DNA of 64,000 bases. Origin: an uncultured Hoeflea sp. (GTDB lineage Bacteria; Pseudomonadota; Alphaproteobacteria; Rhizobiales; Rhizobiaceae). The notes below the pieces were generated by a model. That model was not told the DNA's origin, ran no database searches, and saw nothing but the letters and a program-made list of their open reading frames with translations. The position numbers and the translations under genes are program-made. The first letter of the stretch is position 1. Each line of letters opens with the position of its first letter. Of the stretch, positions 30,582 through 38,819 are shown in pieces. The stretch spans positions 112,843 through 176,842 of the forward strand of contig NZ_CANMVK010000004.1 in NCBI RefSeq assembly GCF_947501405.1, written 5' to 3'.

Positions 30582-30709
30582 ATTTCCATGTAACTATCTT
30601 GTGCATTGCGCCGGTTTGCGGTAAAGATTTGCCGTTCGTCTGGAAGCCACGCGGGGGACGGGACCTGGTTCGCGGGCTATAACGGGAACACTTGGAAGGT
30701 ATATCCACA

Positions 30710-31627
30710 ATGCGGAATAACGCGGAGTGGCGGACCCTGCTTTTGGCAGGCGCCTGCTATGCTGTGTGGTTTTTGCTGGTGTTTGGATGGGCAGGAATGC
30801 CGGACCCTTTGCGCGTACTGGTTCTTATTCCCATCATCACCTTGCATTCCTCGCTACAACACGAGTTCTTACACGGACACCCTTTTCGAAACCAAACCAT
30901 CAACGATCTTCTGATCGCCCCGCCAATTGGAGTGCTGGTGCCATATCTGCGCTTCAAATCCTGCCATCTGATCCATCATATCAACGAAAACATCACCGAT
31001 CCTTATGACGACCCGGAGAGCTATTACCTCGACCGCGACGTCTGGGAGTCCGTGCCAGCCTGGCTGAAGGCGCTTCTGGCCGCCAACAACACCCTTGTCG
31101 GACGCATGACGCTTGGTCCGGCGCTGGCCGCGGTTGGCTTCGTGCGCAGCGAATATCGCCGCGCCCGCGGCCCTGACCCAATCCCGTCCATTGCCCGGGT
31201 CTGGTTGCGCCATGGCCTTGCCGTGACACTGCTGTTCTGGCTTGTCGCACAATATGGCAGCCTGCACCCGGTCGCCTATTTCATCGCTGCCTATTTCGGC
31301 ATGGGCCTGTTGATGGTGCGCTCCTTTATCGAGCACCAGGCCGTGGAAAAAGCCAATCAGCGATCGGTGATCATCGAAACCAGAGGGCCTTTGAGCCTGT
31401 TGTTTCTCAACAACAACTTCCACTCGGTCCATCATGCCTATCCGTCGCTGGCCTGGTACCGGATCCCGGAGTTCTTTCGCGAAAACCGGAACCGTTTCCT
31501 GCGCATGAACGGCGGTTACCGTTATGAAAGCTACTGGGAAGTGTTCCGTCGCCATGGCTTCCGGCCCAAAGAACCGGTTGCCTACCCGATGCGGGCCAAT
31601 CGCAAGCGGCGCGGCGACGTAAGCTAA
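30710..31627 (+). CDS. Membrane fatty-acid-desaturase-family di-iron enzyme
   Basis: His boxes QHEFLHG, HLIHH, FIEH, HSVHH; several TM helices. Confidence 0.9.
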   Translation: MRNNAEWRTLLLAGACYAVWFLLVFGWAGMPDPLRVLVLIPIITLHSSLQHEFLHGHPFRNQTINDLLIAPPIGVLVPYLRFKSCHLIHHINENITDPYDDPESYYLDRDVWESVPAWLKALLAANNTLVGRMTLGPALAAVGFVRSEYRRARGPDPIPSIARVWLRHGLAVTLLFWLVAQYGSLHPVAYFIAAYFGMGLLMVRSFIEHQAVEKANQRSVIIETRGPLSLLFLNNNFHSVHHAYPSLAWYRIPEFFRENRNRFLRMNGGYRYESYWEVFRRHGFRPKEPVAYPMRANRKRRGDVS

Positions 31628-32445
31628 TGCCAGAGACCAAAGCAAAAGGCGGCGCTCCAGGCGGCGTCGCCTCCTTGCCGATGTATGACTGGCCGGAGAT
31701 CCGCGCCTGGACCGACGCGCTGTGGTTAGCCTTGCGCACCCAGTTGCAACAGCGCGGCATCGCTGCGCCCGATCATCTCGAACGGCCAGAAGACCCCGAA
31801 CCTCTGTGGCTCGATCCGTCTCTGGTGCTGTCGCAGACCTGCGGCCATCCCTATGCCAACCAACTGGCCGGCAAGGTGACGCTGATCGGCGCCCCGACCT
31901 ATCCCGGCATCGGCGCAAAGCCGGGTCATTACTTCTCGGTCCTGGTCGCCCGCAAAATGGATCAACCCAGCAACCTTGGCGATCTCAGTAACAAGCGCTT
32001 TGCCTTCAACATGGCACAATCACAATCGGGTTTCGCAGCACCTGTGCGGCTTTTGGCCGACGCCGGCTGTCACTCGCGGCCCAAACCATTTGCGACCGGA
32101 GCGCACCGGGCATCCATACAGGCAGTGGCGCAGGGACAAGCCGACTGGGCGGCGATCGACGCGGTCACCTGGGAACTGGCGAAGCGGCACGAACCGGCGG
32201 CGCAAGAGCTTGACGTGTTTGCCGTAACGCCCGAGACGCCGGGGCTGCCGCTTATCTCAAGTGTGCGTTTTTACTCCCAAGCAAGCATCATCGCCGACGC
32301 CATTGACGCGGCGATTGACGATCTGTCATCCGATGTTCGTGATCACGTGTTGCCGTCAGGATTGAAGCGATTCACTCCGGCTGACTATGCGCCGCTCGCC
32401 AGGCCCCTGCCCATAGCGGCGGCCTTACCCGGCATGGCCGGCTGA
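31627..32445 (+). CDS. PhnD/SsuA-fold protein without a signal peptide
   Basis: ASLPMYD, LSQTCGHP, YFSVLV, AFN..QSQSG, TGAHRASI.AV..G.AD.AAID; no hydrophobic h-region or lipobox; TAATG overlap with the desaturase. Confidence 0.82.
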   Translation: MPETKAKGGAPGGVASLPMYDWPEIRAWTDALWLALRTQLQQRGIAAPDHLERPEDPEPLWLDPSLVLSQTCGHPYANQLAGKVTLIGAPTYPGIGAKPGHYFSVLVARKMDQPSNLGDLSNKRFAFNMAQSQSGFAAPVRLLADAGCHSRPKPFATGAHRASIQAVAQGQADWAAIDAVTWELAKRHEPAAQELDVFAVTPETPGLPLISSVRFYSQASIIADAIDAAIDDLSSDVRDHVLPSGLKRFTPADYAPLARPLPIAAALPGMAG

Positions 32446-32461
32446 TCGGGACTGGCCGGAG

Positions 32462-33493
32462 CTATCTTTCCGTCAGCTTCAACTCGATGCGCCGGTTGGT
32501 GGCGCGGTCCTCGTTGCTGTCGCCCTCAGCGATCGGTTGGAACTCGCCGAAGCCAGCGGCCACCAGGCGGTTGGCCGGAACCCCCTCGGCGATCAGATAT
32601 TTGACCACCGAAGTTGCCCGGGCACTGGATAGTTCCCAGTTGTCGGCATAGCGGCCGGTGCCCGACAGCGGCACATTGTCGGTGTGCCCGTCAACCCGCA
32701 GCACCCAGTTGATCTCCTCCGGGATCTCCCGGGACAACTCGTTGATTGCCTCCGCGAGCTTCGCCATCTGCTCTTGGCCCGCCGGGTTGAGCTCGTTACC
32801 GCCCGACGGAAACAGCACCTCGGATTGAAACACGAAACGGTCGCCCACCACCCGCACATCTTCACGGCTCGACAGGATCTCCCGCAGACGGCCGAAGAAA
32901 TCCGACCGGTAGCGGTTAAGCTCCTGTACCCGCTGCGCCAACGCCACATTGAGCCGCCGGCCCAGATCGGCGATCTTGGCCTGGGTCTCGCGGTCCTTGG
33001 ATTCCGATACGTCCAGGGCATCTTCAAGTGCTGCCAATTGAGTACGCAGCGCCGAAATCTGTTGATTGAGCAGTTCCACCTGATTGAGCGCGCGCTGCGA
33101 AACCTTCTTCTCCGCATCCAGGGTCTCGCTGAGCGTGCCAATGCGGGCCTCCGCCGCGGCACTGGCGCCCGAGCCGCTCGCCAGCAATTCCTGCAACCGC
33201 GACCGGTCGCTTTCCGCCTCGCTGAGCGACGCCTGGAGATTGGCCAGCGTATCCTCGAGATCCTGCTTGCCGGACCGCTCCAGCGCCAGCAACTGGGTGA
33301 GTTCATTGATCTGGCTGTTGAGCCGGTTCAAAACCTGGTCGCGGCCCGAAATCTCCCGTGACAGGAAAAACTGCGCCAGCACAAACACCGTCAGCAGGAA
33401 CATGATCGCCAGAAGCAGCGTCGACAGAGCGTCGACGAAGCCCGGCCAGTAATCGACCGCCCGGTCCCGCCGCCGGTTTCGCGCCAGCGCCAT
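32462..33493 (-). CDS. MotB/OmpA-like peptidoglycan-binding membrane protein
   Basis: YWPGFVDAL plus a single TM, long coiled coil, OmpA domain (RVDGHTD, NWELSSARA, NRRIEL). Confidence 0.9.
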   Translation of the reverse strand: MALARNRRRDRAVDYWPGFVDALSTLLLAIMFLLTVFVLAQFFLSREISGRDQVLNRLNSQINELTQLLALERSGKQDLEDTLANLQASLSEAESDRSRLQELLASGSGASAAAEARIGTLSETLDAEKKVSQRALNQVELLNQQISALRTQLAALEDALDVSESKDRETQAKIADLGRRLNVALAQRVQELNRYRSDFFGRLREILSSREDVRVVGDRFVFQSEVLFPSGGNELNPAGQEQMAKLAEAINELSREIPEEINWVLRVDGHTDNVPLSGTGRYADNWELSSARATSVVKYLIAEGVPANRLVAAGFGEFQPIAEGDSNEDRATNRRIELKLTER

Positions 33494-33496
33494 CGC

Positions 33497-34519
33497 CTAT
33501 TTGTCTCCGAGCTTTTCGGTCAGCTTGTCGAGCGTTTCGCGCATGCGCCGCGCTTCCACCTGTTGCGCCTCGATCCAGTCACGCAGCATCTGCTGCTCGC
33601 CGCGCATATTCTTGACCAGACCCTGAATGCCTTCGGCAAGGCTCGCCATCGCCGCGGTGGTGCGCGGGGTCACACCCGACTCCTGCGACAGCTTCTGCAT
33701 CCGCTCCGAAAGCATGCGGATTTCTTCGGTGGCGCCGGCGCCTTCGGCCGGCATTGCGATCTCGGAATCAAGATCCGTCATGGTCGACAGCCAGTTCTCA
33801 AGTTCAGTGTAAAACCGGTTCTGCGCGCGCCCAGCCTGCAGGTCGAGAAAGCCCAGGATCAATGAGCCCGCGAGGCCGAACAGGGATGACGAAAACGCGG
33901 TTCCCATTCCGTCGAGCGGCGCCGACAACCCGGTCTTCAGTGTCGAGAGCACATCTTCGGTGCCGCCGCTGCCGGGATCGAGCGACTGGATCACCTGGTT
34001 GATTGAGCCGATGGTGCCGAGCAGACCCCAGAAGGTGCCAAGCAGCCCCAGGAAAACCAAAAGCCCGATCAGATAGCGCGACGTGTCGCGCGATTCATCC
34101 AGACGGGTGGCGATCGAATCGAGGATCGAGCGCAGCGATGAGGTCGACAGCGCCATCTCCTGACGCCGTCCGATCAGCGCCCGCATCGGCGCCAGTAGTA
34201 CCGGGTCGCGACCCACTTTTTCCGCGTTTCCCGTCGCGCGCAGCGAATTGACCCACCGCACCTCCGGCCTGAGCCGCAGCACATGTGTAAACACCAGCAG
34301 CACGCCCACCGCCAGAACACCGACGATCAACCCGTTGAGACCCGGATTTGCCAGGAAAGCCGTTTGGATTTGCCGGTACAGAATGGCCGCGACGAAACCG
34401 GAGAGGATGAGGAAAATCATCATGCTCCAGAAGAAAACCATCGGACTTGAGAGCTTGTGCGGATCCGCACCGCTGCCGTCTTCGGAGATGCCCCATCCCG
34501 ACAATGTCAGTTTCGCCAT
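33497..34519 (-). CDS. MotA/TolQ/ExbB-family proton-channel protein
   Basis: LLVFLGLLGTFWGL and GMGTAFSSSLFGL channel helices, two N-terminal TMs, C-terminal coiled coil. Confidence 0.88.
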   Translation of the reverse strand: MAKLTLSGWGISEDGSGADPHKLSSPMVFFWSMMIFLILSGFVAAILYRQIQTAFLANPGLNGLIVGVLAVGVLLVFTHVLRLRPEVRWVNSLRATGNAEKVGRDPVLLAPMRALIGRRQEMALSTSSLRSILDSIATRLDESRDTSRYLIGLLVFLGLLGTFWGLLGTIGSINQVIQSLDPGSGGTEDVLSTLKTGLSAPLDGMGTAFSSSLFGLAGSLILGFLDLQAGRAQNRFYTELENWLSTMTDLDSEIAMPAEGAGATEEIRMLSERMQKLSQESGVTPRTTAAMASLAEGIQGLVKNMRGEQQMLRDWIEAQQVEARRMRETLDKLTEKLGDK

Positions 34520-34644
34520 GCGTGTTCCGTCCTGGCTGCTGCCCCAAATCATCCGATTGCGCGAACACTAACCGATAATATGGCGGAAATGAAAGCAGGC
34601 GCGTAAAACAGGGTTATCGTGGCCGCAGGGCGCAGTTCGCCGCG

Positions 34645-38042: not shown

Positions 38043-38819
38043 ATGATGACAGACCCGCTCTTCTACGCCGCCGCCATTCCGGCCGTGATCATGGTGGGGC
38101 TGTCAAAGGGAGGGTTTGGCGGCGCCATGGCGTTGCTCGGCGTGCCGCTGATGGCGTTGACGATCCCTCCAGTGCAGGCCGCCGCCATCCTGCTTCCGAT
38201 CCTTATCGTGATGGACATGGTCACACTGTGGACCTGGCGCAAACACTGGGACAAGACGAGCCTGATCATCATGGTGCCCGGCGCGATCATCGGCATTACA
38301 ATCGGTTGGGCCACCGCTGCCTGGGTAACCGACCCGATGATCCGCCTGATTGTCGGCGTCGTCGCGCTGTGGTTTGTCGCGCGCTACGTGCAGCTCACGC
38401 TGGCGGCCAGACGCAAGGCGAGCGCTCCGCCGCCGCGCGGCCATCAGCCGGTCAAGGGCGCGCTGTGGGGTACGCTTGCAGGCTTTACCAGCTTCGTCTC
38501 CCATGCCGGCGGCCCACCCTACCAGATCTACACTTTGCCGCTCAGGCAGGATCCCAAGACCTACACCGGCACCAGCGTGCGGTTCTTCGCCATCATCAAC
38601 GCCATCAAACTGGCGCCCTATTTCGCACTCGGCCAGTTCGACGCAACCAACCTCTCCACCTCTCTGGCGTTAGCCCCGATCGCCCCGGTGGCGACCCTGG
38701 CCGGCGCCTATATCGTCAAGCGGATGAAGCCCGAGATTTTCTATCCCTTCATGTACGCGATGGTGTTTCTCACTTCGCTCAAGCTGATATGGGACGGCGC
38801 CGTTCACCTTTTGGCGTGA
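38043..38819 (+). CDS. TauE/SafE-family exporter
   Basis: GLSKGGFGG, AGFTSFVSHAGGPP, multiple TMs. Confidence 0.92.
   Translation: MMTDPLFYAAAIPAVIMVGLSKGGFGGAMALLGVPLMALTIPPVQAAAILLPILIVMDMVTLWTWRKHWDKTSLIIMVPGAIIGITIGWATAAWVTDPMIRLIVGVVALWFVARYVQLTLAARRKASAPPPRGHQPVKGALWGTLAGFTSFVSHAGGPPYQIYTLPLRQDPKTYTGTSVRFFAIINAIKLAPYFALGQFDATNLSTSLALAPIAPVATLAGAYIVKRMKPEIFYPFMYAMVFLTSLKLIWDGAVHLLA

Follow-up and report, generated by a model that had tools for sequence, protein, structure and literature searches.

Among described proteins, AioX, ArxX and ArrX (6esk, 6eu7, 6x6b) are the nearest counterparts of PhnDl, a PhnD-like protein whose gene overlaps that of des, a membrane protein of the FA_desaturase family, in a 64,000-nucleotide stretch of DNA (hereafter the window) from an uncultured Hoeflea sp. 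(assembly GCF_947501405.1, contig NZ_CANMVK010000004.1, positions 112,843 to 176,842 of the forward strand). They give the best profile and fold match to PhnDl, share six pocket residues with it and, like it, are not transport proteins. AioX, on the other hand, is periplasmic and accompanied by a sensor kinase and a response regulator (AioS/AioR), whereas PhnDl is leaderless and paired with a membrane di-iron protein; neither the window nor any of the related loci examined has a sensor kinase or a response regulator beside PhnDl. The lid loop of PhnDl also differs from theirs. PhnD, PtxB and HtxB also resemble PhnDl in their family (PF12974), their fold and their Ser-x-Ser-Gly, Tyr and His oxyanion ligands, but these are binding proteins of ATP-binding cassette (ABC) importers, whereas PhnDl comes without a signal peptide, a lipobox or an adjacent permease or ATPase.

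For des, comparable enzymes are found in other pathways. MocD, which acts with MocE and MocF, is a membrane di-iron enzyme of the FA_desaturase fold involved in the demethylation of the rhizopine 3-O-methyl-scyllo-inosamine, and its partners are a Rieske ferredoxin and a reductase, not a protein of the binding-protein fold. GntB, the L-arginine hydroxylase of guanitoxin synthesis, is likewise an FA_desaturase-fold enzyme working on a small water-soluble molecule, as is proposed here for des. Since both act on small soluble molecules, MocD and GntB are precedents for the chemistry proposed for des, with a likeness to it at the family level only (19 bits to GntB). A further parallel is the TmpA/TmpB route, by which 2-(trimethylammonio)ethylphosphonate is oxidatively cleaved to glycine betaine and phosphate (as cited in PMC10590968). 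As in the present proposal, an iron-oxygenase there converts an onium-plus-oxyanion compound to glycine betaine, an output which would explain the MttB, DMGDH and DAO genes that neighbour the pair in other genomes. The likeness is logical only: neither the soluble Fe/2-oxoglutarate enzyme TmpA nor the HD-domain enzyme TmpB is homologous to des or PhnDl. No mention of the des-PhnDl pair was found in the literature searched, including the MtgBCD paper with its supplements and the phosphonate FAD-enzyme paper. The parts are of known kinds, and their combination is without a characterised precedent. The explanation which best accounts for the findings below, and which we hold with about even confidence, is that des is a di-iron oxygenase at the cytoplasmic face of the membrane to which its partner PhnDl supplies a small polar substrate.

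The two genes of the pair are located in the window as follows:

30710..31627, + strand: des, a predicted 305-residue membrane di-iron protein assigned to an orphan subfamily of the FA_desaturase family

31627..32445, + strand: PhnDl, a 272-residue leaderless protein of the PhnD/AioX fold with an invariant QTCGxP motif

They meet in the sequence gctTAATGcca, in which the TAA stop of des (31625-31627) overlaps the ATG start of PhnDl (31627-31629). The des frame holds an alternative upstream TTG at 30692, but the upstream alignment shows that it is not kept in other Hoeflea, and ATG 30710 is therefore taken as the real start. The nearest homologues of both proteins are those of Hoeflea species. 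An earlier note, written from the letters of this DNA, had described a His-box desaturase gene TAATG-coupled to a PhnD-fold gene, with an ABC exporter upstream and no importer nearby. The open reading frames, the PF00487 and PF12974 matches and the junction sequence agree with that description, as does the upstream ABC protein, in which the transmembrane and nucleotide-binding domains of an exporter are fused (TIGR02204 MsbA_rel, 879 bits against a cut-off of 780); no importer permease or ATPase was found within about 8 kb of the pair in the window.

The metal site characteristic of the family is intact in des. The protein matched PF00487 FA_desaturase at E 2e-31 and 110 bits (cut-off 29.7) over profile positions 11-251 of 253, its three His boxes, HEFLH (51), HLIHH (86) and HSVHH (238), are all invariant in the des alignment (A3), and eight His are conserved in that alignment. 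Four hydrophobic segments resembling transmembrane helices (about 9-28, 30-46, 163-182 and 186-205) agree with the helices of the AlphaFold2 (AF2) model, whose predicted local distance difference test (pLDDT) score is 80.6. No curated NCBIfam equivalog was reached, the best being CrtR (30 bits against a cut-off of 475), with GntB at the score given above, and as judged from its sequence des belongs to an orphan subfamily of PF00487. The sole PDB fold neighbour of the model is chain K of 8xks, the Chlamydomonas Orf2971-FtsHi motor complex (E 0.012, template modelling (TM) score 0.55), and a sequence search of the PDB returned noise only; that database appears to hold hardly any PF00487-type desaturases of this kind. 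A strongly conserved region, DPYDDPES..NNTLxGR..GPA, lies between His box 2 and the third membrane segment. In the FA_desaturase family the His-box metal site lies on the cytoplasmic side of the membrane, and by this family topology the conserved region after His box 2 would be cytoplasmic and would offer a candidate docking surface.

Regarding PhnDl, several observations concur in excluding an export signal. Its frame is closed by a stop 34 codons upstream, the codons between include no ATG, GTG or TTG, and the peptide that they would encode is not hydrophobic. Neither a signal peptide nor any hydrophobic segment was detected, the maximum Kyte-Doolittle value being 0.94 over the whole protein (19-residue window) and 0.75 over the first 45 residues (11-residue window). 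The same holds for the family: conservation among homologues begins at LPMYD, three to twenty residues after the N-terminus, many of them have an in-frame stop a few codons upstream, and among the best 150 cluster representatives at 50% identity the profile match begins at residues 1-21 in 148. Importers located near related loci bring their own substrate-binding proteins (SBPs), which belong to other families. Because PhnDl is leaderless family-wide and has no cognate importer, it is not a conventional periplasmic binding protein. The earlier note had reached the same conclusion from the lack of a signal peptide and a lipobox, and had named an upstream start providing a signal peptide as what would overturn it; the hydropathy, the upstream stop and the family-wide leaderlessness are in line with its conclusion, and the frame contains no such start.

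Having established that PhnDl is leaderless, its fold and ligand pocket were compared with those of known binding proteins. It matched PF12974 Phosphonate-bd at E 6e-19 and 68.7 bits (cut-off 27), stayed below the cut-offs of TIGR01098 (50 against 112) and TIGR03431 (36 against 261), and weakly matched NF049985 (Rv1679/Rv1680-type, E 4e-4). Its AF2 model has a pLDDT of 95.5, and the top Foldseek matches were AioX, ArrX, PtxB, PhnD and HtxB (TM about 0.7; about 0.73 for AioX), with the bacterial sterol transporter 7t1m also among the fold matches. The family profile of PhnDl detected AioX at E 3.6e-25. The pocket residues of AioX are Y88, C106, Y131, S161, S163, H192 and D210 (PMC5908839). Counted through HMMER alignments, C106 corresponds to C72 of PhnDl, Y131 to Y102, S161 to S132, S163 to S134, H192 to H160 and D210 to D178, whereas Y88 could not be aligned. 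Six of the seven are thus matched, and all six are invariant in an alignment of 62 family members; the AioX-specific Cys and Asp, both missing from PhnD, are both present in PhnDl. When the alignment was extended to the 22-35% identical homologues of enterobacterial and rhizobial plasmids, Q70, C72, G73, P75, S132, S134, G135, D173 and D178 remained invariant. Since six of the seven AioX pocket residues are kept, the Cys included, PhnDl probably binds a ligand that bears an oxyanion group, as far as its sequence can tell, and an oxyanion-type pocket, in keeping with the oxyanion-bearing substrate which the earlier note had suggested, is borne out in the close family. PhnDl would therefore combine a retained oxyanion-type pocket and an invariant Cys with a lid specific to its family, MYDWPE. 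The Tyr/His/Asp set also recalls transferrin, and a role of PhnDl as an iron chaperone was considered; it was judged unlikely because PhnD and AioX use these very residues as their standard oxyanion set.

The invariance of the Cys bears on another possibility, namely that PhnDl is, like MqnA, MqnD and THI5, a binding-protein-fold enzyme, which uses Cys72 for a separate step of the pathway that des serves and does not dock to des. That Q70, C72, G73 and P75 are invariant even in Alpha- and Gammaproteobacterial homologues of 22-35% identity is a degree of conservation met more often in catalytic residues than in those for specificity, and PhnDl does occur without des in nine sampled genomes and beside genes for DAO, DMGDH and aldehyde dehydrogenases. 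Its pocket residues, on the other hand, are those of non-catalytic oxyanion binders, and its strong co-occurrence and translational coupling with des also count against this view. Moreover, PF12974 was the only family type matched: PhnDl showed no match to MqnA/MqnD or THI5/NMT1, and the Pfam and NCBIfam scans gave only PF12974-type families at E up to 0.001-0.01. This explanation is regarded as distinctly unlikely.

The functional tie between the two proteins was assessed through their distribution in 401 Alphaproteobacteria drawn evenly across families. PhnDl was present in 52 genomes, des in 52 and both in 43 (odds ratio 180, Fisher p 8e-40, kinship ignored). In these 43 genomes the two genes are adjacent and co-directional in 11, divergent with about 1.1 kb occupied only by an XRE-type regulator between them in 19, directly divergent in 1 and unlinked in 12. 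It is their occurrence together without linkage that argues more strongly for a functional tie. The pairwise distance matrices of des and PhnDl are correlated (r 0.83, Mantel 0/2000), which fits co-inheritance, and the Hoeflea clade is nested in the des tree inside the clade of the adjacent type. Of 47 loci from many genera with the two genes in one direction, at least 21 allow a stop/start overlap (-4 or -1). The family is large, with 1314 clusters (50% identity) at E 1e-30 or better, and occurs in about 1 in 8 of the sampled alphaproteobacterial genomes.

In 80 related loci, collected with one genome per species, the Hoeflea clade shows the same synteny as the window, while des lies directly upstream of PhnDl with quite different flanks in Pararhizobium, Salaquimonas, Sneathiella, Kiloniella, Limibaculum, unclassified Hyphomicrobiales and the gammaproteobacterium Saccharospirillum. 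The pair is also found in Methylosinus OB3b and, with overlapping genes, on plasmids of Klebsiella, Erwinia and Pantoea; it was not found in E. coli. An incidental adjacency of two unrelated genes in Hoeflea might be suspected from their neighbours there, which are housekeeping genes with no regulator or catabolic gene adjacent. That 43 of 52 genomes from many families contain both genes, that the pair is retained in different flanks and in Gammaproteobacteria and that the stop/start overlap recurs nevertheless make this hardly credible. The association of PhnDl with a desaturase-family protein, as first noted, is consequently upheld by its recurrence in several arrangements.

Two longer proteins were considered as candidate des-PhnDl fusions and discarded: P0093 (385 residues) is a frameshift artefact, and P0371 (397 residues) is longer by a C-terminal extension without assignment. 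In a Salaquimonas metagenome-assembled genome (L017:5113-6759), des and PhnDl lie in one frame with a single stop between them (..KKNQG, the stop, then SVPYIASLPMYD). No ATG is present there between the stop and the start of the conserved PhnDl domain, the only potential start being a GTG 3 nucleotides past the stop, and readthrough or an alternative start is possible.

The spacer of about 1.1 kb in the divergent loci is the gene for a protein of roughly 290 residues with an N-terminal HTH_3 (XRE-type) domain, whose C-terminal part of about 200 residues has no Pfam or NCBIfam match and no known ligand-binding domain (examples are L089:5000-5872, L091:4877-5734 and L090:4841-5701). Neighbour clustering over about 90 loci returned PhnDl and this regulator as the conserved neighbours of des. 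Three layouts were distinguished: the regulator divergent from des-PhnDl, which is the co-directional type of most non-Hoeflea loci; PhnDl-regulator divergent from des, the divergent type; and, in Rhodobacterales, the regulator with DUF2061-des-EamA at one site and PhnDl elsewhere. The regulator is present in 48 of the 401 genomes and linked to des in 35 of the 52 that bear des. All three parts occur together in 32, the regulator occurs alone in 12, and because 11 genomes hold des and PhnDl without it, it is frequent but not obligatory. The two-part system originally proposed thus stands as regards the tie between des and PhnDl, but had missed this recurrent third part.

The regulator-des intergenic regions (L021-L041, L057, L089-L093) carry a conserved motif, about TTnGCGnAnTCTCATATTGTCC, over a -35-like TTGTCC that is followed 17-18 nucleotides on by CATAnT, probably a des promoter with the operator of the regulator; the TTnGCGnAnTCTCATATTGTCC motif was not found upstream of des in the window. 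The genome of the window has a sole regulator homologue, on another contig (C5:88371-89225), unlinked to the pair and beside a DUF2061 gene, and it scores within a low-scoring subgroup that is also found in genomes without des. A search for an operator common to the des upstream region and the intergenic region of this homologue gave only one shared 8-mer, which is not convincing.

The recurrence of the regulator opens another reading of PhnDl, as a cytoplasmic ligand sensor that controls the module. By analogy with AioX, which senses for its partner AioS, PhnDl would bind the inducer and act on the regulator or allosterically on des. AioX and ArrX, its closest solved relatives, are sensors and not transport proteins. 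In 19 of the 43 genomes the PhnDl gene immediately follows that of the regulator on the same strand, with des pointing the other way, and the regulator lacks a known ligand-binding domain of its own in its C-terminal part. On the other side, the 11 genomes with des and PhnDl and no regulator and the 12 with the regulator alone count against a sensor, as does the unlinked, low-scoring homologue which is the only one in the genome of the window. Furthermore, the translational coupling of PhnDl to des, seen in Hoeflea and many others, suggests a stoichiometry matched to that of the membrane protein. A sensor role is accordingly considered unlikely, if the most probable of the alternatives to a substrate-supplying partner of des.

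With respect to the possible substrate, two themes emerged from the gene neighbourhoods in other genomes. The first is the demethylation of quaternary amines and methylamines. In Kiloniella, PhnDl is followed by genes for an MttB-family methyltransferase, a SoxB/MTOX-like FAD oxidase (DAO) and a DMGDH-like enzyme, and MttB, SoxB-like DAO and DMGDH genes stand beside the pair in varying combinations in Sneathiella, Salaquimonas and others. MttB was present in 34 of the 43 pair-bearing genomes and in 51 of the 358 others (kinship ignored), and since nine of the 43 lack it, it is not required for the pair. In Terrarubrum, RACo, corrinoid-protein and DUF1638 genes adjoin des, and PhnDl is adjoined by MR/MLE, OCD-family and Ldh-family genes, a type employed for proline-betaine-type compounds. 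In Phaeobacter the regulator/DUF2061-des-DMT unit adjoins a carnitine dehydrogenase cluster, and on the Klebsiella plasmid an OpuAC-type importer and an NtaA/DmoA luciferase-like monooxygenase (LLM) are convergent with the pair, the annotation of the Erwinia plasmid being alike.

The second theme, the scavenging of sulfur (LLM, msuE, tau/ssu and soxC genes), was met in more distant homologues. On Rhizobium plasmids, des lies beside LLM, msuE and tauA genes, with PhnDl about 23 kb away in a cluster of LLM and aldehyde dehydrogenase genes. A Sinorhizobium plasmid has des beside sulfonate and sulfate importers, and an Agrobacterium plasmid has the same Opp-type layout but no sulfur genes. In Pantoea, LLM genes flank the pair on both sides, and in Variovorax a rhodanese gene and a cysteine-desulfurase encapsulin gene lie beside des. 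On plasmid pOB3b_01 of Methylosinus trichosporium OB3b (L119:5749-9774), soxC (sulfite dehydrogenase), cytochrome c, des and PhnDl genes follow one another in one direction, which hints that sulfite could be a product in that lineage. In none of the loci examined did pst/Pho-type genes adjoin the pair, and phn (C-P lyase) genes were met only next to a Variovorax des without PhnDl; nor were ars, aio, arx or arr genes, sought on account of the likeness to AioX, found in any of these loci. The earlier note had proposed to look for genes of phosphorus or sulfur starvation next to the pair. The sulfur part of this expectation was recovered, in distant (about 35% identical) homologues only, and the phosphate part was not; as the main link, this context gives way in the marine relatives to quaternary-amine and methylamine demethylation genes.

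A third setting is found in Rhodobacterales (L025, L035, L038, L042-L044 and about 20 more), where PhnDl is part of a fixed block, preceded by GatB and SLT and followed by a polar-amino-acid ABC importer that has its own SBP_bac_3, a GlnA-like gene and a class-I GATase/peptidase C26 gene. This block resembles a gamma-glutamylation amine pathway.

These neighbourhoods also bear on whether des might be a lipid desaturase or hydroxylase after all, acting on the acyl chains of one membrane lipid (phosphatidylcholine, betaine lipids or sulfonolipids), the head group or the lyso- or deacylated form of which would be bound by PhnDl. Membership of PF00487 with an intact di-iron site is what such an enzyme would show, proteins of the PhnD fold are able to bind lipids, as the sterol transporter 7t1m among the fold matches illustrates, and a head group with onium and oxyanion chemistry would suit both themes. 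The module, however, has a dedicated transcription regulator and is embedded in catabolic or importer clusters in many lineages, the pair has no conserved lipid-synthesis neighbour, and the two other PF00487 genes of the genome could serve ordinary lipid desaturation. A lipid substrate is consequently seen as improbable, about as much so as an independent enzymatic role of PhnDl.

Taken together, the family membership, leaderlessness, translational overlap, co-inheritance, pocket conservation and neighbourhood themes observed for the pair suggest the following scheme for a di-iron oxygenase supplied by PhnDl. des and PhnDl would constitute one functional unit, joined in most lineages by the XRE-type regulator. 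Soluble in the cytoplasm, PhnDl would capture a small polar ligand bearing an oxyanion and probably also an onium group (quaternary ammonium or similar), and would deliver it to des on the cytoplasmic side of the membrane, the two proteins forming a physical complex in which the substrate is handed over. With electrons from a donor, des would then hydroxylate or oxidatively cleave the ligand, the product of which would feed a betaine demethylation route and/or free an inorganic sulfur or phosphorus oxyanion. Compounds that combine an onium group with a sulfur or phosphorus oxyanion are proposed because both neighbourhood themes intersect there. By pure conjecture, the substrate could be choline-O-sulfate, an N-methylated taurine or aminoethylphosphonate, or phosphocholine; choline-O-sulfate would be the most economical guess, since hydroxylation next to its ester oxygen would yield betaine aldehyde and sulfate. 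A more specific version, advanced only tentatively, is that a solute-binding-protein fold was recruited as the cytoplasmic substrate-recognition subunit of a membrane di-iron oxygenase and is possibly catalytic itself through the invariant Cys. The result would be a two-component oxygenase of a new type, for the oxidative processing of an abundant onium-plus-oxyanion osmolyte, for instance choline-O-sulfate or an N-methylated aminoalkyl sulfonate or phosphonate.

Several observations weigh against this proposal. The amine-binding residues of PhnD for 2-aminoethylphosphonate, E177 and D205, correspond to V180 and P208 in PhnDl, and Y102 is replaced in the rhizobial plasmid subfamily of the extended alignment. 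Among the 401 genomes, des lacks PhnDl in nine, just as PhnDl lacks des in nine, and the pair is unlinked in the 12 mentioned above; no fusion of the two was found among the 150 best cluster representatives. Neighbour clustering over the same 90 or so loci revealed no conserved ferredoxin, rubredoxin, Rieske or reductase gene. The association with MttB could have arisen through shared ecology, and the quaternary-amine and sulfur themes are heterogeneous, so that the substrate may differ between subfamilies. In Rhodobacterales, PhnDl stands beside amino-acid importer and GlnA-like genes with des and the regulator elsewhere, and in Hoeflea the neighbours of the pair are housekeeping genes only.

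The labels "fatty acid desaturase" and "phosphonate ABC transporter substrate-binding protein" are probably misleading for the pair, a widespread and mis-annotated module which now has a defined three-part anatomy and candidate ligand classes. If it is a two-part oxygenase, it would represent a new way to build substrate specificity onto membrane di-iron enzymes and a new intracellular role for the binding-protein fold, and would probably account for a so far unassigned step by which methylated osmolytes or organosulfur compounds are turned over, with a bearing on marine carbon, nitrogen and sulfur cycling. Should PhnDl indeed be a recruited subunit, betaine demethylation would be linked with the release of sulfur or phosphorus in marine and soil bacteria.

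Putative regulatory elements frame the pair in Hoeflea:

30599..30627, + strand: promoter-like site with -35 TTGTGC (30599-30604), a 17-nucleotide spacer and -10 TAAAGA (30622-30627)

30633..30709, + strand: 77-nucleotide 5' leader, which includes the Shine-Dalgarno sequence (GAAGG) and can form a long imperfect hairpin

32438..32459, + strand: terminator-like hairpin at the stop of PhnDl, between this gene and the MotB-like gene convergent with it, from a pattern scan only

The sequence TTGTGA-N17-TAATnA, read by eye from the alignment, is conserved upstream of Hoeflea des, and 30599-30627 may hold the promoter of the des-PhnDl operon; the consensus scanner did not report this site. Among 12 genomes of the Hoeflea clade, the mean pairwise identity of the leader is 92%, compared with 89% for codon positions 1 and 2 of des, 67% for its third codon positions and 60% for the 77 nucleotides farther upstream. 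RNAalifold predicted the leader hairpin with a few pair-preserving changes. The leader (30633-30709) had no Rfam match, no second copy in the genome and an ordinary folding energy (z about 0), and is a candidate cis-regulatory RNA or protein-binding site. The terminator-like hairpin has a 7-bp stem with five G-C pairs and a T-rich tail. In view of the promoter-like site, the conserved leader and this hairpin, the pair resembles a bicistronic cassette that is self-contained and carries cis-regulatory elements of its own. In one of the three same-order relatives without the pair that were checked, the genes for the MsbA-related exporter and the MotB-like protein abut directly (G248 C12:201240-204059, compared with 32462-34552 of the window), and the des-PhnDl cassette therefore looks inserted at this place in Hoeflea.

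Pfam and NCBIfam scans placed genes for RcdA, ribosomal protein L31 and the ABC exporter upstream of the pair, and a MotB/MotA-like pair, an inositol-monophosphatase-family gene (SuhB-like) and EF-P downstream. These are followed farther downstream by genes for a Sel1-repeat protein, a TMP-synthase-like protein, TauE and an acyl-CoA-synthetase-like protein. The TauE/SafE-family (sulfite-exporter-type) membrane protein is encoded at 38043-38819, 5.6 kb downstream of PhnDl (PF01925, E 2e-34), and given the sulfur theme of the distant homologues, its position near the pair may or may not be a coincidence. Elsewhere, the same genome carries three further canonical PF12974 genes and two further PF00487 genes.

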